32,000 bases of DNA from Candidatus Lokiarchaeum ossiferum (GTDB lineage Archaea > Asgardarchaeota > Lokiarchaeia > Sigyniarchaeales > Promethearchaeaceae): assembly GCA_025839675.1 (NCBI GenBank), contig CP104013.1, positions 4,740,001-4,772,000 on the forward strand. Direction: 5' to 3'. Under the pieces are notes generated by a model. It had not been told where the DNA came from, made no database searches, and saw only the letters and a program-made list of their open reading frames with translations. Below, piece after piece: positions 8,204 through 19,609 of the stretch. The translations under genes and the position numbers were made by a program. Numbering within the stretch: the first letter of the stretch is position 1; each line of letters starts with the position of its first letter.

Positions 8204-9556
8204 TTAAGCAATTGGGTATTTGATAAAGAAAACCACTATTAGAATCATCCGAATTATGAAAAATGTTGCTGAAATTCCAATAATGCCTTTATACATCAAT
8301 TGCTGATTTTTTGTTTCTTTCTTCTTTTTGTAATAGCGCGTTTCCAATTCATTCCAAAGCATGCCTCCACTAAAAGTGATTGCTAAATTCAAAATAAAGA
8401 ACCAACCATAATTCTCTGGAGCGGCATCGAATACATCCAGAGTGTAAGGATTGCCATCGTACATCACTAAGAAGAACTGGTATACTATGGAGAAGTAAAA
8501 TATTTGTGTTAGTAAAATATGGTAAGTAGAGCGACTAATTCTTCTCACCCAATCGTAGTATTTTCCTTCGGGATTTTCTGGAATAAATTTCATCCCGACT
8601 AAAAATAGAAAGCCTGAATAGGGGAAAAAAAAGAGATGATAATCCCCTGTAATCCAAGAGAAGAAAAGTAAATTGTAACGCAACCAATTTCCCAAAAAGA
8701 CGTATTGAAACATATATAAAAGACTTAGAGGTAATAATGACCACATCCAAATATTGCGTTTGGCATATAAATCATGATCTGTAGAAAACCAAAGCCCCAA
8801 CCCTATGGCGCTGAACATGTTAAATATATGGCATCCGAAGAAACTGGATGTGATCCTTGCTGGATCCGTATAATCAAACACATTATAGAAATAGTAGGTC
8901 ATAACTCTCCATCCGAACTCAATGACGAAGGTCGATACAAGAGTTAATGCTGGTTTCTGCAGATAACACCAATATAGAGCGGGGAAGATAAGAATTGTGG
9001 AGAAAAGTGCCGGTAAAAACCAACTTCCTGGTCCGTAGAAGGGAGTATAACCAATATAGACGTTGTAGGGTGATTCGTAATAGGCGACGTTTAAGGTAGT
9101 CATACCCGTATAGCGTTCCAAGAGATATAGGATAGTATGGGCCGCGTAAAGGATTAAAAATGGGGCAATATATCGTTTCAACTTTGATTCGAAGTATTTG
9201 AGGGAGTAGAGTTGTTTGATGGTAGTGTATCCTTTCTTTTTAAAGGAGATGCCCATATTATACCCCATAATTATTACAAGCATGGGGATACTGATCCTTT
9301 CCCAGAATGTGGAAAGGTATTTGGATAGATAATGGTGCGTAAAGGTATGGTCCATGATGACCAGAAATATCATCACCGCTTTGAAAGCATCTACCTGAAA
9401 ATAATGCTTAGATGAAGTTGGTTTTGCGATTAAAGCCGTATCATCTGAGGGAGTTATACTTTGAGATTCCATGATTTTGTTCACAATTTCAATATTAGGT
9501 AGATAACAAAGGGCGAGGGATATATTATTTACGAAATTGAGATCAATGCAATTCAT
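8204..9556 (-). CDS. Polytopic membrane protein, acyltransferase-3/HGSNAT-like (paralogue A)
   Basis: 450 aa with at least 10 hydrophobic helices. The N-terminal YFQVDAFKAVMIFLVIMDHTFTH resembles the D..K/R......V..H first-helix motif of membrane-bound O-acyltransferases (assigned from memory, not searched). By eye it is about 60% identical to the product of 10657-11931. Confidence 0.55.
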   Translation of the reverse strand: MNCIDLNFVNNISLALCYLPNIEIVNKIMESQSITPSDDTALIAKPTSSKHYFQVDAFKAVMIFLVIMDHTFTHHYLSKYLSTFWERISIPMLVIIMGYNMGISFKKKGYTTIKQLYSLKYFESKLKRYIAPFLILYAAHTILYLLERYTGMTTLNVAYYESPYNVYIGYTPFYGPGSWFLPALFSTILIFPALYWCYLQKPALTLVSTFVIEFGWRVMTYYFYNVFDYTDPARITSSFFGCHIFNMFSAIGLGLWFSTDHDLYAKRNIWMWSLLPLSLLYMFQYVFLGNWLRYNLLFFSWITGDYHLFFFPYSGFLFLVGMKFIPENPEGKYYDWVRRISRSTYHILLTQIFYFSIVYQFFLVMYDGNPYTLDVFDAAPENYGWFFILNLAITFSGGMLWNELETRYYKKKKETKNQQLMYKGIIGISATFFIIRMILIVVFFIKYPIA

Positions 9557-9610
9557 GAAAAATAGAACTAGGATGGGAAATTATCATAATTAAATACTCG
9601 TAAAAAAAAA

Positions 9611-10498
9611 CTACTCCAAACCCGTCAGTTTTAATCGAAGAAAATTAAGGAAAAAGGCCATTGCAAGTATTACTGGTGCAAATAGCAACAAAAACCAGTT
9701 ATCACTCAGAATGGGATTATCACTGACCTGAATAATTACGATAATACAGCATATGATCCATCCTCCGAAAAAAATCGCTGCAAAGATGCCGTACTTATTT
9801 GCCTTTTTACTGGATATTTTATATGCCGCAACTTTTTCTTTAAATTGTGGATCATTTTGAAGACGCCTTTCCCGTTCTTGATTTAAGGCATCAATATACT
9901 TTGCTATGATTGTTTTTTTGAGTGCTCGATTTTTTTTTGCATCAAAAGGTGTCGTTTCCTGCCATTTTTTCAAGTTTGGAGTGATAGAAAACATTTTGAT
10001 CTTAATTTCGCCAATGGGGTCTTCTCCTTCTTGGTAATGACATTCTCCTGTTTGATTGATCCAAATTCCTCTAAAAACTTTCCTATATGGTAGTGTTTGC
10101 ATCAAAGTCATTAGAGTTCCCATAAACATTCCTGCCAGCAAAATGACTTCCAATCCATTAAGCTTGCCCATTGAATACATTCGGGTGGGATTGACGATTA
10201 AACCAAGCCCCCAAATGAAAAGACAAAATAAGAAAAATGAAATCCACCAAAATTTGATACTGTCATGAATACTTTTCTTTAAGCGGATCGGGTCGAAATA
10301 CATCGTATCATCGGGTAAATACCGGAAAATATCATCGGGGATCCACCCATCAAAGACAAAGACATTATTAATCGTGTTTTCCGTGGTGATAGCTGGAATT
10401 GCGGTGGCTTGAGAAAGAGCATTTTTCATTTTATATTCTTGATAAAACTCGACACATCTTTTGTGGTCTGCCTTTTTTAAAGAAAAATTGATATTCAT
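9611..10498 (-). CDS. Hypothetical membrane protein (4 predicted TM)
   Basis: ORF with ATG at 10498 (the track's TTG at 10501 is one codon upstream). TM pairs FWWISFFLFCLFIWGLGLIV / VILLAGMFMGTLMTLM and IFAAIFFGGWIICCIIVII / FLLLFAPVILAMAFFLNFL. Lies between the two acyltransferase-like paralogues. Confidence 0.55.
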   Translation of the reverse strand: MNINFSLKKADHKRCVEFYQEYKMKNALSQATAIPAITTENTINNVFVFDGWIPDDIFRYLPDDTMYFDPIRLKKSIHDSIKFWWISFFLFCLFIWGLGLIVNPTRMYSMGKLNGLEVILLAGMFMGTLMTLMQTLPYRKVFRGIWINQTGECHYQEGEDPIGEIKIKMFSITPNLKKWQETTPFDAKKNRALKKTIIAKYIDALNQERERRLQNDPQFKEKVAAYKISSKKANKYGIFAAIFFGGWIICCIIVIIQVSDNPILSDNWFLLLFAPVILAMAFFLNFLRLKLTGLE

Positions 10499-10656
10499 CA
10501 AGATTTCATAGATGATCTTCCTATTTGGATTTGAGTATGCTAAAATTTATTGTCTTGGAATGAAATATCTCCGTCATGAAAAATGAAAGGAAAAATTGGA
10601 CCTCTTGAAAGATAATAAAAAAAAAATGTGTTATTTTGACTTTCGTCGTTATATTT

Positions 10657-11931
10657 TCAATATTTTATGAAGAAAATCACGATTAACACTATTCGAGTCA
10701 AGAAGAACAATACACTTAAGCCTATGGCTCCTTTATAGATCAATTTCAAAGAAGAATTTTCTTTGACTTTGCGATAGAATCGCGATTCTGCTTCATTCCA
10801 CAACATACCTATTGAGAATGTAATTAATACATTCAGCGGGTAGAACCATAGATAATTAATTGGATTGGCATCGAATACATCAGGTACATTATCGAGGGGG
10901 TTAAACATAAACAAGAAGAACTGATAAACGATTGAGAAATAGAATATTTGTGTTAAGAGAATGTGGTAGGTTGATTTACTAATCCGTCGGACAAAATCAC
11001 TGAGTTTTCCTTGCGGATTTTCAGGAATAAATTTCATTCCCAACAAGAATAAAACAGCAGAGTATGGGAAGAAGTAGAGATGGTAATCTCCTGTCACCCA
11101 TGGTAACCAATTGCCAATAGCATTGTAGCGGAAAATATAGATAATTGAAAACAGCCCAATAATCCAGACAAATCGATTACGTTTTGATAAAATATCATGA
11201 TCAGTGGAAAACCATAATCCTAGACCAACAGCGCTGAACATTGCAAATACATGACATCCAAAGAACCCATCGGTTACTTTAGCTGGATCTCCAAAAAGCA
11301 TATCCCCATAAATAATGTCTCGTATTAAATACCAACCCAATTCAATAACAAATGTTCCAACTAACGTAATAACATCATTTTTCTTGTAGCACCAGTAGAT
11401 AATTGGGAAAATAAGGATTGTAGACATGAGTACTGGTAAAAACCACATGCCTGGGCCGTAGAATGGCGTATATCCAATAAATATGTTGAGAAAGTTCTCA
11501 TAGTAGAAGACATCTAAGGTATCAAAGACCATTGCAGATTCTAACAGATATAATATGGTGTGAACGAAATAAAGTATCAAAAACGGGACCACGTATCGTT
11601 TCATCTTGTTCTCAAAATAGGAGAGCGAATACATTTCTTTTAATTTGGTAACTCCCTTTTTATCAAAGGATTTTCCCATATTGAATCCCATGATGATCAT
11701 CAACATTGGAATCGAAATTCGTTCCCAAAAGGAAGAGCCAAAATCATGCAGAAAAGCGTGGGTAAAGGTGTGATCCATTATCACAAAGGCTATCATAAGG
11801 GCTTTCCATGCATCTACTTGAAAATAGCGCACACCCTTACGGGATTCTGTTTGAACTAAAGCAGAATCTGGTTCGGTTAAAGTTGAGTTTTCCATAAGAT
11901 CTATCACATTAGTAGGTAGACTGAAGTTCAT
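10657..11931 (-). CDS. Polytopic membrane protein, acyltransferase-3/HGSNAT-like (paralogue B)
   Basis: 424 aa. YFQVDAWKALMIAFVIMDHTFTH, FWERISIPMLMIIMGFNMGKSF, GYTPFYGPGMWFLP and STYHILLTQIFYFSIVYQFF are all shared almost verbatim with 8204-9556. Confidence 0.55.
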   Translation of the reverse strand: MNFSLPTNVIDLMENSTLTEPDSALVQTESRKGVRYFQVDAWKALMIAFVIMDHTFTHAFLHDFGSSFWERISIPMLMIIMGFNMGKSFDKKGVTKLKEMYSLSYFENKMKRYVVPFLILYFVHTILYLLESAMVFDTLDVFYYENFLNIFIGYTPFYGPGMWFLPVLMSTILIFPIIYWCYKKNDVITLVGTFVIELGWYLIRDIIYGDMLFGDPAKVTDGFFGCHVFAMFSAVGLGLWFSTDHDILSKRNRFVWIIGLFSIIYIFRYNAIGNWLPWVTGDYHLYFFPYSAVLFLLGMKFIPENPQGKLSDFVRRISKSTYHILLTQIFYFSIVYQFFLFMFNPLDNVPDVFDANPINYLWFYPLNVLITFSIGMLWNEAESRFYRKVKENSSLKLIYKGAIGLSVLFFLTRIVLIVIFFIKY

Positions 11932-12063
11932 TGAAACTAGGTCAAATCCTTTCTTAGTTTACTTTAGAGAGAGATCTTATTTAAAGAAAAATTGATCTTT
12001 AAATCGATTGTTCAGATTAATTAGCACTTGCCTTTTTAGGATGTCAAGATTTCGTCCCATCAA

Positions 12064-12480
12064 TTAATAGTCCAATGTGCAATATTCAGGGTTAATGGTA
12101 TCATGGGAAAGATCATATTTCTGACAAATTTTCTGGATCAATTCGCACGAAAACGCACCAGCAAGATGAATTGCTTCACTATGGGCTTGGATTTTTTGAA
12201 GGTCAAGGGTATCTACCAAAAATTTTTCTATAATAAAATGATGGTTGGATAGATGTGCAGCATACTCCATTCCTTGGGAAGTTAATGAGACTGGACCATA
12301 TTTCTCCCATGTTATTAGTTGAGTTTCTACTAAGCGTTTCAAAGTGGAATTGAGGGTGGAATGCTTTATTCTAACTTCCTTTTTCAAATCTCCCGGACGG
12401 ATTGGTCGTTTCCAATAAAATAAAAAATCGAGGACTCGGTGATCCTTTTCCTTCAGCAATTCACAGCTTATTTGATTCAT
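12064..12480 (-). CDS. DtxR/MntR-family metal-dependent transcriptional repressor
   Basis: 138 aa. Winged-helix part IRPGDLKKEVRIKHSTLNSTLKRLVETQLI, then the dimerisation/metal-binding part LTSQGMEYAAHLSNHHFIIEKFLVDTLDL...AHSEAIHLAGAFSCELIQKI, typical of the DtxR family. Its start overlaps the stop of the upstream binding-protein gene (ATGA at 12477-12480). Confidence 0.8.
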   Translation of the reverse strand: MNQISCELLKEKDHRVLDFLFYWKRPIRPGDLKKEVRIKHSTLNSTLKRLVETQLITWEKYGPVSLTSQGMEYAAHLSNHHFIIEKFLVDTLDLQKIQAHSEAIHLAGAFSCELIQKICQKYDLSHDTINPEYCTLDY

Positions 12481-13517
12481 GATTTTTCATGCCTTTTGAA
12501 TAAAACTACGAGTCCTATTAGCATTGATCCAAATATGATCTCTATTTGGTAACTGGGAATATTCGATGTTGAACTTGGAATTTCTTGAGGATTTACTAGT
12601 GCCCATAGGTTATATCTGATCATTTTAGCGTAAGTGTCAATCAACTCATTATTGTCTCCTGTCATGCCCAGAAGGGGTATGGCATTTACAATTTTTGCGT
12701 TCGTATCGCGAGCTAGTTGAGCCACATCCGCAACATCGAGGTTAGGTTGATTGATGATTATGGAAATATTTTGTTCTATCATAATTTGTTGAATATCTTG
12801 AATGTGTTTGGCAGAAGGCTCTGATCCTTCTTTTTCTTGAATCACAGCTACTCTTTCAATTCCAAGTAAATTGAGCAAATACATCATGGATGGGTGGTGT
12901 AGAACTACTTTTAGACCTTCAACTTGAGGTTTAAACTCGAGAATTTCTTGGTATAATGTATCCAAGGTTGCTTGATAAGCATTATACGTCGAATCTAACG
13001 CGGTTGAATCAAAATTTGAATCTATTTGGAATTCTGTATAAATATTTTCCACCATCATTTTAGCAATTATAGGGGAGGTCCAGCCATGAGGATTAATTCC
13101 TTCAAGTAATGGATCATTTTCTTCCATAGTTGCGTTCATAACAGTAATAATCTTGAGATTAGGATTATCTGCTAAAGCAACTTCCTTGAGACTCCCTTCC
13201 CAATAAGGTTCCAAATCTTCTCTTCCCATCAAGATAATGTAATCCGCTTGGATCAATTTTTGAATTTCAGTAGGATTTGGCTCGTAAGTATGAGGATCTT
13301 CATTTCCATCTACTAAGGAATATACTTCTACTTGATCTCCTGCAATTTCTTGCACAAAATCTTGAAGAATCGTAATGCTTGTGACTACTTGAATTGGATC
13401 TGCTTCGGTTGTTGAAGTTCCCATCGATAATGGGAGAGTGATAGTCATGCTTGCAAAGGTAAATAAAACAAGGATACTCATTTTTCTAAAATTATTAACA
13501 ATTTTGTGATTTTTCAT
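12477..13517 (-). CDS. Metal (Zn2+/Mn2+-type) ABC transporter substrate-binding protein, TroA/ZnuA family, with N-terminal signal/anchor and C-terminal TM anchor
   Basis: DPHTYEPNPTEIQKLIQADYIILMG, GINPHGWTSP and VVLHHPSMMYLL match conserved ZnuA/TroA blocks. There is an N-terminal hydrophobic leader and a C-terminal IEIIFGSMLIGLVVLF anchor. Adjacent to a matching permease, ATPase and regulator. Confidence 0.85.
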   Translation of the reverse strand: MKNHKIVNNFRKMSILVLFTFASMTITLPLSMGTSTTEADPIQVVTSITILQDFVQEIAGDQVEVYSLVDGNEDPHTYEPNPTEIQKLIQADYIILMGREDLEPYWEGSLKEVALADNPNLKIITVMNATMEENDPLLEGINPHGWTSPIIAKMMVENIYTEFQIDSNFDSTALDSTYNAYQATLDTLYQEILEFKPQVEGLKVVLHHPSMMYLLNLLGIERVAVIQEKEGSEPSAKHIQDIQQIMIEQNISIIINQPNLDVADVAQLARDTNAKIVNAIPLLGMTGDNNELIDTYAKMIRYNLWALVNPQEIPSSTSNIPSYQIEIIFGSMLIGLVVLFKRHEKS

Positions 13518-13559
13518 TTTTTATCTTCTCAATTAGGCAAAAATTTTAGTTGGTATGAG

Positions 13560-13577
13560 TTTACGAACTTTCGTAAA
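13560..13577. promoter_or_regulatory. Perfect palindrome TTTACGAA-CT-TTCGTAAA upstream of the binding-protein/repressor operon; candidate operator
   Basis: 8-bp arms with a 2-bp spacer, 43-60 nt upstream of the ATG at 13517. The DtxR-like repressor is encoded in the same operon. A palindrome of this size is not statistically rare in 32 kb of AT-rich DNA, so the call rests on position. Confidence 0.35.
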
Positions 13578-13639
13578 TTTTGTTCATAATCGTATTCTAA
13601 CTAAATAAGCATAAAAACATTTCTATGAAGTCATAAAAG

Positions 13640-13660
13640 CTAAAGAAAAAGAAAAAAATA
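13640..13660 (-). terminator. Oligo-T tracts (minus strand) directly after the GTPase gene stop
   Basis: The plus strand reads CTAAAGAAAAAGAAAAAAATAG, giving TTTTTTT/TTTTT runs on the minus strand 12-30 nt after the stop at 13672-13674. This suggests the GTPase gene is transcribed separately from the downstream binding-protein operon. Confidence 0.45.
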
Positions 13661-13671
13661 GAAATTTCTCA

Positions 13672-14706
13672 TCAAAAATCGTCAAAATAATACGTTTTCA
13701 CAATCTTTTCTGTCCGGAGAATTCCAATACGGATGATTTCGGAATTAATTAGCACTTTTTTGATATTTGTGGTAAAATCCTCCACTTTTTCTAGTAAAAC
13801 TGCAATATCTTTGGGGACAGCAATGGTGTTTACTCCTATGCAAAAATAGAAAGGAAACTCTTCCCCAACAGTAATAAAAAATTTCTTTGTATAAATTTGA
13901 TTGAAACCAACAGTAAACTGTGGAAATTTTCCTTCAAATCCAGAAAAATCAAATTCTTTCAAATACGCTGAGAGTGTTTTTATATTGCTTTGTAAATGGT
14001 CAGGATTGGTAAAATTTCCAATTTCAAAGAAGTTCTTAGTAAAAAGAATTCCAAAATTCAGGGCATTTTCTTTGCAGAATTGACCAATGGTTTTACAAAG
14101 TGTTTCATAAATGTCTTCATTACTCAACATAGGCTGTGTAAATGCGGAGATCACGCTTAATGGATGATGAATTGAAGTGTGAAATATAGCTGGAGGATTA
14201 TTTGCTTTTGCTTGAACTTTTGGAAGGATTTCTTCTAAAAACTCATTTTCAACCTTGGTAAAATCGACACTTCCAGAATACTCTGGATCAATTTTGTGGA
14301 AAAATAAATATAATTTGGCATTTGGGCTAAATTCAATCGCTTTTTCGAAAGTTTTAAGAAAATAAGCCATGGATTCACGTAAATTTTTGGTATCCTGACT
14401 ATCAACGATATAATAGATGTAGCGAATTCCTTCAAAATATTTTTTGGGATTATTTAAATAATTTTGTCGATACCTTTCTTGCCCTCCAAAATCCCAAATC
14501 AATAATTCTCGTCCCAAAAATTCAATACTTGTTCTTTCTACACTCTTGGTTGGAGCCAAAGACATTAATGCTTCGAATTGGTAAAGGACTGATTTAACAA
14601 TGGACGTTTTTCCAGCATTTCCAAGACCCAATATTGCTATTTTTTGGACCTTCTTTGCATCTAATTCTTTTTGCAATTCTTTCCGTTCATAATCTCGCAG
14701 AATCAA
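13672..14706 (-). CDS. Rag/Gtr-family small GTPase with fused C-terminal (roadblock-like) domain
   Basis: G1 GLGNAGKTS, G3 LIWDFGGQ, G4 HKID (the Rag-specific H in place of N), G5-like HTSIHHPLSVISAF. The block SPNAKLYLFFHKID parallels human RagA SPDAKIFCLVHKMD (recalled sequence). The total length of 344 aa, with about 150 aa after the G domain, matches the Rag architecture. There is no ATG before the P-loop, so the start is presumably TTG at 14706. Confidence 0.85.
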   Translation of the reverse strand: MILRDYERKELQKELDAKKVQKIAILGLGNAGKTSIVKSVLYQFEALMSLAPTKSVERTSIEFLGRELLIWDFGGQERYRQNYLNNPKKYFEGIRYIYYIVDSQDTKNLRESMAYFLKTFEKAIEFSPNAKLYLFFHKIDPEYSGSVDFTKVENEFLEEILPKVQAKANNPPAIFHTSIHHPLSVISAFTQPMLSNEDIYETLCKTIGQFCKENALNFGILFTKNFFEIGNFTNPDHLQSNIKTLSAYLKEFDFSGFEGKFPQFTVGFNQIYTKKFFITVGEEFPFYFCIGVNTIAVPKDIAVLLEKVEDFTTNIKKVLINSEIIRIGILRTEKIVKTYYFDDF

Positions 14707-14839
14707 GGTACTCGATCTAGCAAAAAGTGAGTTATTGATTTATATTATATCTTTGTAAATTTTTTAAAGCTAATTGGAAAGTTTTTTCTTTTGAACTAGG
14801 TAGTTTTTAAGGGTGGGCTGATTTCTTTCTAAGTAGCTT

Positions 14840-15856
14840 ATGTTGCTTGAGACATTAGGTTTTTTTGAAAGCTTAAAATATCAATATTTGCAATTTGCCT
14901 TGCTTTCTACCATTTTAGTAGGTGTAATCTGTGGAATTATTGGTGTTTTTGTAGTTCTCAAAGGTATGTCTTTTTTGGGTGCAGGGATTGCACATTCTTG
15001 TTTTGCTGGAGGTGCTTTAGCCATTTTGCTGGGGACTAATCCATTTATCACTATATTTCTTTTTGGGGAATCAGCGGCAATGATTATTGGATTTGTTAAT
15101 GATCGGGATCCCAGTGGCAAAAACGATACTGCTGTGGGGATTATGTTTAGCTTTACAATGGCTCTTGCAATATTATTTATTGGTTTAATGGAATCGTACA
15201 GTACAAACGTCCAGTCATTATTATTCGGAAATGCTCTAACCGTCCCTAAAGAAAGTATGTGGCAATTGATTATCCTTGGAGGAATCATTTTGGTGATCTT
15301 TTTTGCACTGAAGAAAGAATTTTTCTTCATAATATTTGATGAAGAAATGGCCAAAGTTTCTGGAATACCTGTTCGGTTATTGAATTACATCTTTATTGGA
15401 ATTATTGCTGGAATTGTAACTGTATCCATTCAAGCGATTGGGGCAATTTTAGTTTTTGCAATGATTGTGACTCCTGGGGCTGCCGCTCATGCTCTAACTT
15501 ATAATGTAAATAAAATGCTCGGTTTAGCATCATTATTTGGTGCTATTTCATCTTCCCTTGGGTTAATTCTGAGTTTTTATTTTGATTTACCTACTGGTTC
15601 TACAATTGTAATGGTTATCACATTCATTTATATTCTTTGCTTTACTTTTTCCCCCAAAAGAAAAGCTTACCAGCCTATAACTCAACAAGATCAGCTAGAT
15701 CATCAGAAATATTGTAAATTTTGTGTGGATGATGAATTTCGATGCCCTTATTGTGAAGATGAAAGTGAAATCTTAATTGTTGATTCTTCAGGAAAATCTC
15801 ACACTCATTCAAAATCTCTCAATTCTTCACATAATCATTCTCATCAAAAATTTTGA
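14840..15856 (+). CDS. Metal ABC transporter permease (ABC-3/ZnuB-TroC family) with a 66-aa Cys4 and His-rich C-terminal tail
   Basis: Eight or more TM helices with ABC-3-type blocks (GAGIAHSCFAGGALA, FDEEMAKVSGIPVRLLNYIF, AMIVTPGAAAHALT). The tail is KRKAYQ...CKFCVDDEFRCPYCEDE...HTHSKSLNSSHNHSHQKF. Confidence 0.9.
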   Translation: MLLETLGFFESLKYQYLQFALLSTILVGVICGIIGVFVVLKGMSFLGAGIAHSCFAGGALAILLGTNPFITIFLFGESAAMIIGFVNDRDPSGKNDTAVGIMFSFTMALAILFIGLMESYSTNVQSLLFGNALTVPKESMWQLIILGGIILVIFFALKKEFFFIIFDEEMAKVSGIPVRLLNYIFIGIIAGIVTVSIQAIGAILVFAMIVTPGAAAHALTYNVNKMLGLASLFGAISSSLGLILSFYFDLPTGSTIVMVITFIYILCFTFSPKRKAYQPITQQDQLDHQKYCKFCVDDEFRCPYCEDESEILIVDSSGKSHTHSKSLNSSHNHSHQKF

Positions 15857-15866
15857 GGTATTAAGC

Positions 15867-16634
15867 TTGGCAAAACAAGAACATAACTCCAATCAAGAAT
15901 TATCTATGAATCCCGAGGAAGAATTAATAAGGTTTGAAAATGTTAAATTGGGATATAATCAGAGACCAATATTACATGGTATTAATTTCAAAATTCGAAA
16001 AGGAGATTACATTGGAATAATCGGGCCGAATGGCTGCGGGAAATCGACATTTTTAAAAAGTATTTTAAATTTAATCGTTCCAATGGAAGGGACTATCCGA
16101 ATGCAAGGCAAAAAAATTAATCGTCAAATTCGTAATCAATTGGGATATGTTCCTCAAGATACTAAATTTAGCAAGGAATTTCCTCTTAGTGTGTCTGAAG
16201 CCGTTTTACAGGGACGTTATGGGATCATTGGTATTTTGAAGAGGCCGAAAAAAGAAGATTTTGAAGCCGTCCGTCTTGCATTGCATAAGGTACATATGGG
16301 GAAGTATGCAAAACGGCCTATTGGGCATCTTTCAGGTGGTGAGCAACAAAAAGTTATGATTGCACGAGCTCTTGCTCGGAATCCTGATATCATTCTTATG
16401 GATGAACCTACCAGTGCTTTGGATTATCAAATGACTCAAAGTGTATTTACTTTGATTGAAGAATTACATGATAAGTATGGTTTAACTGTATTAATGGTTC
16501 ACCATGATATCACCCTCATACGAAAACATGCGCGAAGATTAGTTGTTCTTGATGGAACAATTCGTTATGATGGATCTCCAAATACACCAATTGCAGATGA
16601 AATTATTGCCACTGCATACAATGTGAGTAAATAA
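15867..16634 (+). CDS. Metal ABC transporter ATP-binding protein (ZnuC/TroB-like)
   Basis: Walker A GPNGCGKST, signature LSGGEQQKVMIARAL, Walker [14 protein letters not shown]-loop HH. Start uncertain: either TTG at 15867, 7 nt after GAGGT at 15855-15859, or ATG at 15906. The track's start at 15777 lies inside the permease tail and is unlikely. Confidence 0.9.
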   Translation: MAKQEHNSNQELSMNPEEELIRFENVKLGYNQRPILHGINFKIRKGDYIGIIGPNGCGKSTFLKSILNLIVPMEGTIRMQGKKINRQIRNQLGYVPQDTKFSKEFPLSVSEAVLQGRYGIIGILKRPKKEDFEAVRLALHKVHMGKYAKRPIGHLSGGEQQKVMIARALARNPDIILMDEPTSALDYQMTQSVFTLIEELHDKYGLTVLMVHHDITLIRKHARRLVVLDGTIRYDGSPNTPIADEIIATAYNVSK

Positions 16635-16680
16635 TTTTTTCATTTTCATTTTCTTTTGATTTAATTGAGTTAATTAAATC
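16635..16680 (+). terminator. T-rich tract plus a 9-bp-stem hairpin after the ATPase gene
   Basis: TTTTTTCATTTTCATTTTCTTTT at 16635-16657, then GATTTAATT-gagtt-AATTAAATC at 16658-16680. Confidence 0.45.
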
Positions 16681-16806
16681 AAAATAAATAAATCCCAAAT
16701 TAACCTTTCGCTGGATGTTTTGGAGAGAATTTACTCTGATAAGAAATTTGCTTTTCATTTAACCAAGTTCAAATTTTTTTAAAAAGAAACGTCTAATGAT
16801 ATATCT

Positions 16807-18342
16807 ATGGAAGAAAAAGGAGATCTCAAAGTAAATTTTGATCATGATCCCCATGCTGTAATCCAAGATCTTGATATTGTTATATCCAAACTGAAAAAAA
16901 TTCTTGGGAATCAATGGGTTTCAACGGATTATATTGACAAAGTGGCTTATGGAAAAGATTATTGGCTAATATCTAATCAAATGACTCTTGATGGGAAAAT
17001 CCCAGCATATCCTGATATTATAGTATGGCCTCAAAAAACTCACCAAATTGCTGAAATTTTAAAATATGCTAATAGTCATAAACCACCTATCCCCGTTATT
17101 CCCTATGGGGAAGGCTCCGGTGTGGTAGGAGGTGCAGTTCCAATTAAAGGTGGAATTATGGTGGATATGAAACATTTTGACCAGATCACAATTAATGCAG
17201 AAAATATGACTGCAACTATTGGAACAGGTGTAAATGGAAAAGTCTTAGAACGTTACATGCATGAACACGGATTTCGGATGGGTCATATCCCGCAATCTTT
17301 ACATGCTTCAACTGTTGGAGGGTATGTGGCTCACCGCGCCGCAGGTCAATTTTCTGGAAAATATGGAAAAATGGAAGACATTGTCAAATCATTAGAAGTT
17401 GTCCTTCCTACGGGTGAGATTGTCAAGTCTAAATTTTATCCGCGAGCATCGGTAGGTCCTATTGTAGATCGAATCTTTTTAGGCTCTGAAGGGACTCTTG
17501 GTATAGTTACTGAAGTTACTTGTCGTATTTGGCCATTTCCTGAAAAACAAGCAGGGTCTTCCTTCGTGTTTCCTACTTTACAAGATAGTTTGAATGCAAT
17601 ACGAGAAACCTTACAAGCGAATATTAATCCAGCGGTCGTTCGAATTTATGACAAACCAGAAACAGTTCGTCACTTTGGATCAACTGAAAAAAAATCTAAG
17701 GATAAACTCATGGTGATTTTTGTTTTTGAAGGGAGCAGCCGATTGGTTGATTTAGAAATGACAATCACTGAAGAAAACTGCCTTAAACACAACGGAGAAG
17801 CTTGTAGTAGTAGACCTGTAGATCATTGGTTTGAGACTCGTTTCAATGTCAAAGAATCATCAGATTTTGGACCATACGGTCTTGTATTTGATACTGTCGA
17901 AGTTTCTATTCCTTGGGATAAAGCAAATGAATTATATGAAGCTGTTGTTCAAGAGATACTTGCTGTTCCCGGAGCTCTCATGGCAACTGGGCATGCTTCT
18001 CATTTTTATCCGACTGGAGTATGTTTCTATTTTACTTTCAGTGGTGTTCCGAAAAAAAATCAGGATTATTTAGAATTATATAATCAATGCTGGGATGCAG
18101 CTGTTAGAGGAACTCTTTTAAAAGGTGGTGCTGCGTCTCATCATCATGGGATGGGCTTGAATCGAACACGCTGGATGCAGCTTGAACACGGTGAAGAGTT
18201 TAAGCTATTGAAGCGGATCAAAAAGCTATTAGATCCAAATAATATTATGAATCCTGGAAAATTGTTTTCTCAGCGTGAAGAAGGATCGGTTTATTTAACT
18301 CAACGGTCTTCCCTTGATGCAAAACCTAAAGGAGGGCTTTAA
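16807..18342 (+). CDS. FAD-linked oxidase (VAO/PCMH fold), GlcD / D-lactate dehydrogenase-like
   Basis: FAD-binding block PDIIVWPQKTHQIAEILKYANSHKPPIPVIPYGEGSGVVGGAVP, GSEGTLGIVTEVT, and C-terminal GGAASHHHGMGLNR...DPNNIMNPGKL, typical of GlcD-type flavoenzymes. Immediately followed by, and tightly coupled to, an Fe-S/CCG subunit gene. Confidence 0.8.
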   Translation: MEEKGDLKVNFDHDPHAVIQDLDIVISKLKKILGNQWVSTDYIDKVAYGKDYWLISNQMTLDGKIPAYPDIIVWPQKTHQIAEILKYANSHKPPIPVIPYGEGSGVVGGAVPIKGGIMVDMKHFDQITINAENMTATIGTGVNGKVLERYMHEHGFRMGHIPQSLHASTVGGYVAHRAAGQFSGKYGKMEDIVKSLEVVLPTGEIVKSKFYPRASVGPIVDRIFLGSEGTLGIVTEVTCRIWPFPEKQAGSSFVFPTLQDSLNAIRETLQANINPAVVRIYDKPETVRHFGSTEKKSKDKLMVIFVFEGSSRLVDLEMTITEENCLKHNGEACSSRPVDHWFETRFNVKESSDFGPYGLVFDTVEVSIPWDKANELYEAVVQEILAVPGALMATGHASHFYPTGVCFYFTFSGVPKKNQDYLELYNQCWDAAVRGTLLKGGAASHHHGMGLNRTRWMQLEHGEEFKLLKRIKKLLDPNNIMNPGKLFSQREEGSVYLTQRSSLDAKPKGGL

Positions 18343-18343
18343 T

Positions 18344-19609
18344 ATGGAAATATTTAAAAAATTTAAGAAATATAGTTGGATGATTCCAATTTTTAAGACC
18401 GTGAGTAAAGAAGATCGTAATAATTTCATTGATGGGTATAAAAATAGGAAAAAATTCTATACTGTGGATAATATCGATGCAAATTTAAAAGATATGGCAA
18501 AATGCGCCTTATGTCCAAACATGTGTCGTTTTGATTGCCCCGCAGTGCAAGTTACCAAAAAAGAGCCGTATGCTCCTGCCAGTAAAGCACGAATTTCATA
18601 TTTTATGGGTATGCAACATATTCCCATGGGCGAATCTAGTGCTATTGACACTCTCTATCAGTGTATGGGTTGCAACGCTTGCCTTCAGTGGTGTCCAATG
18701 GATATTAGTACTGGAGATTTTCTCGTTGAAATGCGCGCCGAACTTGAAAAACGTGATTTATTACCTCAATCTGTTCAACCTCTAAAGCAACGCATTGAAA
18801 GTAACGGCTCCGTTTTTGAAATTTCCCCTTTTTCGGAAGAATCAGATTTTAATCATAATGATCCCAATCCTGAGGTTTTTTATTATATTGGATGTATGGA
18901 TATGAAATATGCTCCACATGCAATTCGAGCAACTATGGGATTGTTGGAAATGATGGGTGTAAAATATTGTACACATCTTGAATCTAGGGAATGTTGTGGT
19001 GGTCCCGTAAATAAAGCAGGTCATAGATCCGTTGCTGTTGGTTTGTCTGAACGAAATCAAGTTCTCCTTAAGGAATCTAAAGTGAAAACCATCATTTCAA
19101 CTTGTCCAGGATGCACAGGGACTATTAAAAAGACTTATACTTCCCTAGGTCATCCTGTAAAAGCTGAAGTGTTGCCAGCAATTCAATACTTTTTGAACAA
19201 AATCGATGAAGGATCACTAAAATTAACTCAAACCATTGATAAAACAATTACTTATCATGATCCTTGCTTATTGGCTAGAAAAAATAACGAAATCAATTTT
19301 GTTGATGGAACCCGCGAATTAATTGGTAAAATTCCTGGGGTGCAATTGAAAGAAGCATATTTGCATGGGGATGAAACTCGTTGTTGTGGGATGGGAGGGG
19401 CCTATCAAATCTCAAACCCTGAATTTTCTTCCAAAGTACGTGAAGATCGTTTAATTCAATTGGAGAAATATTCTCCCAATTATGTTGTATCTGCCTGCCC
19501 AACCTGTGAATATGCTTTCAAAAAAGCACAAGAACAATTGAAAAACTATACATCTGAAGTAAAGGATTTGGTTGAAATAATTGCAGACGCTGCAGGTGTT
19601 AAATACTAA
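18344..19609 (+). CDS. Fe-S oxidoreductase subunit with 2x[4Fe-4S] motifs and two CCG domains (GlcF/HdrD/LutA-like)
   Basis: CALCPNMCRFDCP and CMGCNACLQWCP ferredoxin-type motifs. Two Cys-rich CCG-type blocks (YYIGC...CCGGP...CPGC and HDPC...CCGMGG...CPTC). ATG at 18344 lies 1 nt after the upstream stop, with GGAGGG at 18331-18336. Confidence 0.85.
   Translation: MEIFKKFKKYSWMIPIFKTVSKEDRNNFIDGYKNRKKFYTVDNIDANLKDMAKCALCPNMCRFDCPAVQVTKKEPYAPASKARISYFMGMQHIPMGESSAIDTLYQCMGCNACLQWCPMDISTGDFLVEMRAELEKRDLLPQSVQPLKQRIESNGSVFEISPFSEESDFNHNDPNPEVFYYIGCMDMKYAPHAIRATMGLLEMMGVKYCTHLESRECCGGPVNKAGHRSVAVGLSERNQVLLKESKVKTIISTCPGCTGTIKKTYTSLGHPVKAEVLPAIQYFLNKIDEGSLKLTQTIDKTITYHDPCLLARKNNEINFVDGTRELIGKIPGVQLKEAYLHGDETRCCGMGGAYQISNPEFSSKVREDRLIQLEKYSPNYVVSACPTCEYAFKKAQEQLKNYTSEVKDLVEIIADAAGVKY

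Follow-up and report, generated by a model that had tools for sequence, protein, structure and literature searches.

Asgard archaea, including Promethearchaeum syntrophicum MK-D1, encode many Rag/Gtr-type GTPase paralogues with fused roadblock domains, and the role of these proteins is stated to be unknown (PMC10933270; bioRxiv 10.1101/2024.02.28.582541). Asgard Rag-like GTPases count among the eukaryotic-signature proteins, and most proposals for their role concern membranes. Two of them are represented in the Protein Data Bank (PDB), under the titles 'monomeric Rag-like small GTPase from Asgard Lokiarchaeota (LokiRagM)' (8ZLA, GDP; 9M28, GTP) and 'homo tetrameric RagA-like small GTPase (LokiRagO)' (8YL2), and the residues of 8zla are identical to a 384-amino-acid (aa) open reading frame (ORF) of the MK-D1 chromosome (L047; L numbers denote loci or contigs fetched from relatives). 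Here we analyze a Rag-like GTPase gene, hereafter rag, in a 32,000-nucleotide (nt) stretch of Candidatus Lokiarchaeum ossiferum DNA (the window; positions 4,740,001-4,772,000 of a 6,035,313-bp genome in a single contig, ~33% G+C), where it lies between a znuA-dtxR unit and a permease-ATPase operon (znuBC). The relatives of the window are Lokiarchaeia, among them P. syntrophicum MK-D1 and 'Candidatus Harpocratesius repetitus'. We propose, at a probability of roughly 60%, that rag encodes a two-domain Rag/roadblock switch of the LokiRagM subfamily whose placement in the window is lineage-specific and has an older linkage to dtxR behind it.

The closest described protein, LokiRagM of MK-D1, shares the two-domain architecture of the rag product and ~46-47% identity with it over residues 17-336, and belongs to the same 43-member clade. 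It differs in falling into another sub-clade, in its length (384 aa instead of 344 aa) and in ending in a long acidic tail where the rag protein has YFDDF; moreover, dtxR, znu and FAD-oxidase genes are all absent within ~10 kb of the MK-D1-type genes. LokiRagO also has the same architecture, but it is ~28% identical, belongs to another paralogue group and was deposited as a homotetramer, in contrast to the LokiRagM monomer. Eukaryotic RagA/B-RagC/D and yeast Gtr1-Gtr2 have in common with the rag protein an HKxD G4 motif, a DxxGQ switch II and a roadblock C-terminal domain, but identity is only ~17-21%, and the nearest solved relatives of the rag protein are a monomer and a homotetramer. The eukaryotic proteins are obligate dimers that pair through their roadblock domains (RagA/B with RagC/D, Gtr1 with Gtr2) and operate upstream of TORC1 together with Ragulator/EGO scaffolds and longin-type GAPs (GATOR1, FLCN). 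The rag locus is without a Ragulator, EGO or TORC1 context; TORC1 is, to our knowledge, not known from archaea.

Two bacterial systems invite comparison. COG0523 GTPases of the ZigA/YeiR/ZNG1 type, encoded beside znuABC, resemble the rag case in that a GTPase gene accompanies Zn/Mn uptake genes and a metal-dependent repressor, but their fold class is unrelated, the rag protein lacks CxCC, rag is without operator control in the window's own genome, and it is the repressor gene, rather than the transporter, that recurs beside rag. The MglA-MglB pair of Myxococcus and Thermus follows the same logic of GTPase plus roadblock, and the predicted roadblock of the rag protein resembles MglB (Foldseek probability 1.0, template modelling (TM) score ~0.47-0.57). 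Unlike that pair, the rag protein carries both modules fused in one chain, its G domain is of the Rag and not the MglA type, and its locus offers no polarity or motility context.

rag encodes a Rag/Gtr-family GTPase of the LokiRagM subfamily

A reading of the window made from its sequence alone (the sequence-only reading) had described a 344-aa minus-strand ORF at 13672..14706 with a TTG start, and the ORF is present as claimed, ending in TGA at 13672-13674. The start is borne out by comparison: the TTG of rag (TTG-ATT-CTG-CGA) aligns with the ATG of ATG-ATT-TTG-AGA (MILR) in the 54%-identical gene of L093, and the position is kept as TTG in L090 and L092. An alternative start was considered, but no in-frame ATG precedes the P-loop, and the TTG at 14706 was retained given the homologous ATG in L093. 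The deposited 367-aa gene call in L092 (L092:56-1159) looks over-extended, the homologous start there being an internal TTG (TTG-GTC-TTA-AAA, read as (M)VLKEYEK). Against its 91%-identical L090 orthologue, rag has a ratio of nonsynonymous to synonymous substitution rates (dN/dS) of 0.039 at a dS of ~1.25, a level of constraint equal to that of the neighbouring FAD-oxidase gene (dN/dS 0.038). This ratio, together with intact G motifs and a conserved start, establishes rag as a real, functional gene that is selectively maintained under strong purifying selection.

The top Pfam model for the rag protein is PF04670 (Gtr1_RagA; 82.8 bits, E 3e-23, residues 22-225, cut-off 22), followed among the small-GTPase models by Arf (61.6 bits) and Ras (20.9). 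Pfam and structure searches gave no MglA match, and no PF02492 (CobW/G3E) match was found with Pfam. The best hit in the hidden Markov model search was therefore to Gtr1/RagA and not to Arf, Sar or MglA, the reverse of what the sequence-only reading had named as refuting. Sequence matches in the PDB point the same way: 8zla and 9m28 match over residues 17-336 (E 4e-90), followed by 8yl2 (E 1e-32) and by RagA and Gtr1 (~1e-14). Arf and Arl structures cover the G domain alone (~170 columns in Foldseek).

The G domain, defined by the PF04670 match, occupies positions 14125..14649 on the minus strand (residues ~20-194). It contains G1 GLGNAGKT (27-34), G2 T53, G3 DFGGQ (72-76; WDFGGQ 71-76), G4 HKID (137-140) and G5 TSI (177-179), and 40 homologues show no variation at K33, T53, D72, Q76, H137, K138, D140 and T177. 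The features that had been singled out as Rag-specific, namely WDFGGQ, HKID and the FHTSIHHPLSVISAF region (residues 175-189), are all in place, and the likeness that had been noted to a block of RagA is seen in a HMMER alignment to 6wj2_F, where SPNAKLYLFFHKID of the rag protein parallels SPDAKIFCLVHKMD. The rag protein is thus a Rag/Gtr-family GTPase.

A tree of 66 sequences recovers the LokiRagM subfamily as a 43-row clade that includes the window protein (support 99/100). Within the subfamily, the window protein groups weakly with eight metagenomic proteins (ultrafast bootstrap (UFBoot) 85 / Shimodaira-Hasegawa-like approximate likelihood ratio test (SH-aLRT) 45), and the three sub-clades of this group are strong. 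The rag product is a member of the LokiRagM subfamily, a protein type already known and crystallised; the family assignment of the sequence-only reading is correct, and it was already known, with crystal structures available for the subfamily.

The same reading had stated that only one copy is present. This holds for the window, where there is no adjacent rag paralogue, and fails for the genome, which has 47 PF04670 matches and 17 ORFs that match the rag protein at E<1e-10, or 16 besides rag itself, in very different contexts. Two of these ORFs, at 61,332-62,342 (53% identity) and 3,494,498-3,495,742 (45%), fall within the LokiRagM subfamily as well. With so many paralogues, and with the nearest solved relative deposited as a monomer, the concern that a single copy would lack a heterodimer partner is moot. 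In two further paralogues, both on the minus strand at 2,588,280-2,589,209 and 991,186-992,058, an ArsR-type HTH_5 (PF01022) winged helix is fused to a Rag-like G domain that is without a roadblock domain. We regard these fusions as potential DNA-binding GTPases; by analogy, they would offer a precedent for pairing a winged helix-turn-helix (wHTH) with a Rag domain and would make the pairing of a GTPase with a regulator less exotic.

The C-terminal half of the rag protein is predicted to adopt a roadblock fold

No Pfam model, Robl_LC7 included, matches the C-terminal half of the rag protein. As no sequence profile finds this domain, its assignment rests on structure prediction. We built a full-length AlphaFold2 (AF2) model on 40 homologues (pLDDT, the predicted local distance difference test score, 78.8) and modelled the C-terminal 150 residues alone (pLDDT 83.2). 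In these models the domain (positions 13732..14124, minus strand; residues ~195-325) is arranged alpha-beta-beta-alpha-beta-beta-beta-alpha. The C-terminal domain modelled alone matches the C-terminal domain of 8zla in Foldseek (TMq 0.78, 2.7 A), and the next matches are, in order, LokiRagO, MglB, the RagA C-terminal domain/LAMTOR complex and a Thorarchaeota roadblock protein. The full-length model gives its best global superposition with LokiRagO 8YL2 (TMq 0.73, TMt 0.85, root-mean-square deviation (rmsd) 3.1 A) and aligns with RagA and Gtr1 over ~315 columns (TM 0.57-0.61). From these models we predict that the C-terminal half of the rag protein is a roadblock fold, in agreement with the size-based proposal of the sequence-only reading.

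At its extreme C-terminus the protein ends in an aromatic-acidic tail, YYFDDF (positions 13675..13692, minus strand), identified in the clade alignment. This tail is kept as (Y/F)FDD(F/Y) or FFDH in 5 of the 7 clade members with an aligned C-terminus, and we consider YFDDF a candidate partner-binding motif. The tail is replaced by a long acidic one in the MK-D1-type clade. Members of the MK-D1/LokiRagM clade (L101, L102, L103 and L047) carry E/D-rich C-terminal tails of 50-110 residues, and none of these is found in the clade of the window protein.

The position of rag in the znu locus appears specific to the Lokiarchaeum lineage

To ask whether Rag-like genes recur beside znu genes, as the sequence-only reading had suggested checking, up to 20 kb was fetched around the 14 closest rag homologues of the window's own and related genomes. 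No ZnuA, DtxR, ABC-3 or FAD-oxidase gene lies within ~10 kb of these 14 homologues in the reference genomes. Conversely, a Rag-like ORF was found in the fetched DNA of none of 15 related znu loci, where the binding-protein and permease genes adjoin or have only dtxR between them (spacers of ~95-450 bp). The survey therefore gave no recurrence in the reference genomes, one of the outcomes that the sequence-only reading had named as refuting. The layout of the window is found only in the 91%-identical L090/L091. Judged from gene order, the position of rag between znuA-dtxR and znuBC appears to be a rearrangement specific to the Lokiarchaeum lineage. The idea of rag as a conserved component of znu loci was rejected, as 15 of 15 related znu loci are without it.

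Within the clade of rag itself, znu genes adjoin it in two lineages only (the window with L090, and L094 with L105), whereas dtxR adjoins it in four.

dtxR is a recurrent upstream neighbour of rag within its own clade

Closer relatives of rag, which form its own small clade (43-57% identity), were found by protein search in metagenomic contigs; a second protein search, seeded on P0023, returned no additional clade members. Among the 14 genomes of the GTDB family, only the window's own genome has the rag clade. In three well-separated lineages (43-57% protein identity), dtxR lies immediately upstream of rag on the same strand; the gaps measure 23 and 37 nt in two of these lineages. DtxR orthologues occupy this position in L094, L095, L096, L100 and L105. 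The DtxR proteins of the clade are 52-58% identical to the repressor of the window, and their recognition-helix block, HSTLNSxLxRL, is nearly unchanged.

The layouts around rag vary across the clade. L090/L091 (91% identity) are arranged as the window is. In L092 (79%), the acyltransferase gene that in the window follows dtxR comes right after rag, with no znuA-dtxR in between. In L094 (52%), a fused permease-ATPase gene is divergent from znuA-dtxR-rag, two operators lie upstream, and the 3' end of a second dtxR remains before rag. L100 and L105, of the same lineage, both have dtxR-rag with a 37-nt gap, and in L105 a ZnuA-like gene ends before dtxR. L095 (43%) has the FAD-oxidase gene divergent from a PF01910 gene, which is followed by dtxR and then, after 23 nt, by rag. 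The iron-sulfur (Fe-S) and FAD-oxidase genes are divergent from dtxR-rag, with a 112-nt gap, in L096 (44%), and from rag, which is followed by a low-molecular-weight phosphatase gene (LMWPc), in L093 (54%); in L097 (44%) the FAD-oxidase gene is divergent from rag. Taken together, the FAD-oxidase/Fe-S pair neighbours rag in L093, L095, L096 and L097, and the downstream neighbours of rag differ per lineage (ZnuA, acyltransferase, LMWPc, AhpC, an unknown gene and NosD). Gene order thus indicates that what recurs beside rag in its own clade is not the transporter but the repressor gene, along with the FAD-oxidase/Fe-S pair.

Neighbours of this kind are confined to the clade: no DtxR, ZnuA, ABC-3 or FAD-oxidase gene was found near ~150 other Rag-like loci (14 sister-clade loci, 57 metagenomic loci and 79 loci in Asgard reference genomes, these last totalling 1.15 Mb). 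We found no paper on LokiRagM, LokiRagO or any Asgard DtxR-GTPase link in the searched literature, and as far as that literature goes the clade-specific dtxR-rag (znuA-dtxR-rag) linkage is new.

Three further features of these loci deserve mention. The remnant between dtxR and rag in L094 (L094:4797-5019) is a second dtxR 3' end (GTFSCKVIETTCTKLSVSHHEFHPSFCNQRDY...) that resembles the intact dtxR of L105, which suggests that a znuA-dtxR and a dtxR-rag unit were brought together in L094 by recombination at dtxR. The dtxR-rag operon of L095 is headed by a gene for a 95-aa PF01910 (MTH1187/YkoF-like 'thiamine-binding') protein at L095:2008-2295. The FAD-oxidase/Fe-S(CCG) pair (window 16807-19609; L077, L093, L095, L096, L097) stays by znu, dtxR or rag across differing layouts.

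The window locus has a single candidate operator, upstream of znuA

Pfam searches confirm the locus layout that had been read from the window, with a binding-protein gene and a repressor gene on the minus strand and a permease gene and an ATPase gene on the plus strand. The ZnuA-type substrate-binding protein, which has a C-terminal membrane anchor, is encoded at 12477..13517 (-; PF01297, E 3.7e-47), and the 138-aa DtxR/MntR-family metal-dependent repressor at 12064..12480 (-; PF02742). On the other side of rag lie the ABC-3 (ZnuB/MntB-type) permease gene at 14840..15856 (+; PF00950, E 5.5e-71) and the gene for a 242-aa ATP-binding cassette (ABC) ATPase, from the ATG at 15906 (15906..16634, +; PF00005), a length that agrees with the gene called in L090. 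These are followed by the genes for the GlcD-like FAD-linked oxidase and its Fe-S/CCG subunit (16807..19609, +; Pfam), the other recurrent neighbour of the rag clade. The genome has one ABC-3 locus and one DtxR-type gene, and its CobW-family matches are marginal only (23.6 bits). The neighbour genes within 8204-19609 gave no roadblock or longin Pfam match. Permease and ATPase are separate genes in the window, and the permease carries a Cys/His-rich tail; in L094 the two are fused as one 581-aa gene (L094:1368-3113).

A separate operator for the znuA unit, also proposed in the sequence-only reading, is supported by a conserved palindrome, TTTACGAA-ct-TTCGTAAA, at 13560..13577, 43-60 nt upstream of the znuA ATG. 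This 18-bp candidate operator of the repressor reads TTTACGAACTTTCGTAAA, and its consensus, TTTACGA-N4-TCGTAAA, recurs in the znuA/permease spacers of relatives at L075:5002, L076:10560 and 10612, L077:1619, L078:9685, L083:10508, L084:9654, L090:8073 and L094:3140 and 3192, so that it is conserved across at least 6 genera of the archaeal family. A position weight matrix (PWM) built from these spacer sites found one strong site in a scan of the 6.03-Mb genome, at 13560-13577 (score 26.5). As a candidate operator of the one DtxR-type repressor, the palindrome is well defined. The spacer between rag and the permease gene contains only a TTTACA half-site, which we did not count as an operator. 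The permease-ATPase operon in the window and in L090 has thus lost the operator that relatives share with znuA.

The 133-bp divergent region that rag had been said to share with the permease gene (14707..14839) is real, and contains both promoters, with AT-rich TATA-like boxes at ~14738-14768. It is 92% identical to L090 despite saturated synonymous sites (dS >1 in the flanking genes), which indicates functional constraint, and it likely holds some other control element. The oligo-T tracts noted beyond the rag stop are also real (13646..13658, minus strand; T7 at 13652-13658 and T5 at 13646-13650, 14-28 nt past the stop) and are likely an archaeal terminator. With its own conserved promoter region and these tracts, rag in the window is probably monocistronic, as had been suspected.

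Discussion

Given its sequence and gene order, we suggest the following course for rag. As in the rest of the family, the protein would cycle between GTP and GDP states, and its roadblock domain and conserved YFDDF tail may bind a partner instead of forming a Rag-type heterodimer. The ancestral layout was most likely dtxR-rag or znuA-dtxR-rag beside a divergent FAD-oxidase/Fe-S unit, and a later rearrangement in the Lokiarchaeum lineage would have made rag a monocistronic gene in front of the znuA-dtxR unit. The rag product might then act as a nucleotide-dependent regulatory partner in a Zn/Mn (DtxR) homeostasis circuit, and not as a metallochaperone. Such a metal-linked role in a DtxR-controlled circuit is plausible from gene context, but we hold it tentatively and would not bet on it. 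More doubtful still is a specific version in which binding of the GTPase to the DtxR-type repressor, or to the Znu transporter, depends on its nucleotide state and tunes transcription of the metal-uptake genes, with the ArsR-wHTH-Rag proteins as a fused counterpart.

Alternative explanations of the locus differ widely in how well they fit these data. If rag were a chance ORF or a decaying paralogue copy inserted into an intergenic region, its TTG start would fit, as would its location, since other genomes have just a short divergent promoter region there, but a dN/dS of 0.039 at dS >1, G motifs that are all intact, a same-length ORF with the same start position in the 91%-identical relative and the confident AF2 models of both the full-length protein and its C-terminal domain leave this reading effectively refuted. 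The sequence-only reading had drawn its hint of a metal-linked role from the slot that COG0523 GTPases occupy in bacteria, and rag could accordingly be a functional analogue of these proteins, a GTP-dependent metallochaperone or metal-delivery factor co-induced with the Zn/Mn transporter. It does have znuA and znuBC beside it, both in the window and in L090, operators lie upstream of the znuA-dtxR-rag layout of L094 and L105, and with only marginal CobW-family matches in the genome the niche might be open. Yet the rag protein is a Ras-like small GTPase of the TRAFAC class and not a G3E protein, and it has no PF02492 match; neither 9 clade members nor 40 homologues share an invariant Cys, and their sole invariant His is His137 of G4; the rag promoter of the window's own genome has no operator; and znu genes adjoin rag in none of the 15 related znu loci and are absent beside it in most clade members. 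We rejected the COG0523-like metallochaperone on fold class, on the lack of a conserved Cys/His motif (no CxCC) and on the lack of an operator, and we consider it very improbable. The slot idea thus fails on all of these counts and, in the reference genomes, on recurrence beside znu genes, and the hint of a metal link survives in a weaker form, as the recurrence of rag just downstream of dtxR within its clade.

A stronger challenge comes from the possibility that rag is a syntenic bystander, one of many Lokiarchaeial membrane or cytoskeleton switches unrelated to metals, with a gene order that was inherited and locally shuffled. Rag-like paralogues are numerous in the genome, at least 16 besides rag, and stand in widely differing contexts; rag itself is equipped with a promoter of its own and what looks like a terminator, but with no operator; the znu-FAD-oxidase linkage persists without rag in the related genome G007, and the clade is narrow, with members all from one family; the published view likewise concerns membrane regulation, with the role given as unknown (PMC10933270). 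What speaks for a functional dtxR-rag link instead is that the upstream linkage survives at 43-57% identity, immediately upstream and on the same strand in three separated lineages, while the flank downstream of rag changes from lineage to lineage. The short gaps of 23 and 37 nt in two lineages and the clade specificity, with no such neighbours at ~150 other Rag-like loci, favour the same link. We therefore give the bystander account serious weight, somewhat more than we give to the metal-linked role, while ranking it below our proposal of a LokiRagM-type switch with an older linkage to dtxR.

Several observations weigh against that proposal. No operator was found before dtxR-rag in L095 or L096, nor before rag in the window, L093 or L097, and in the rag/permease spacer of the window the best PWM score is <0 across 14690-14860, with no inverted repeat. 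From the distribution of these sites, metal-dependent control of rag possibly fits the L094/L105 lineage at most. Co-transcription with the repressor gene does not in itself place rag in the regulon of the repressor, and a T6 tract lies inside the 37-nt dtxR-rag gap of L100 and L105. Only ~6-7 lineages, all from one archaeal family, make up the clade, and its monophyly is weakly supported (UFBoot 85 / SH-aLRT 45). As znu, dtxR and the FAD-oxidase gene stay linked without rag in G007, inherited synteny could explain part of the dtxR-rag pattern. Finally, the AF2 model superposes poorly on 8zla as a whole (TM 0.44, rmsd 16.6 A over 322 columns): the domains match, but the inter-domain orientation differs.

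These findings give one clade of Asgard Rag-like GTPases a set of concrete, testable candidate partners, namely a single-copy DtxR-type repressor, an 18-bp operator, a single Zn/Mn ABC transporter and a FAD-oxidase/Fe-S pair. The genome is closed, and GDP and GTP crystal structures are available for a member of the subfamily. If the metal link is not real, the locus is a clean example of narrow-lineage synteny that mimics functional linkage. If dtxR and rag form a direct couple, a transcription factor would be the target of a Rag-type switch in an archaeon. If the metal link is true, a pre-eukaryotic Rag-type switch would have been wired to nutrient (metal) status via transcription.

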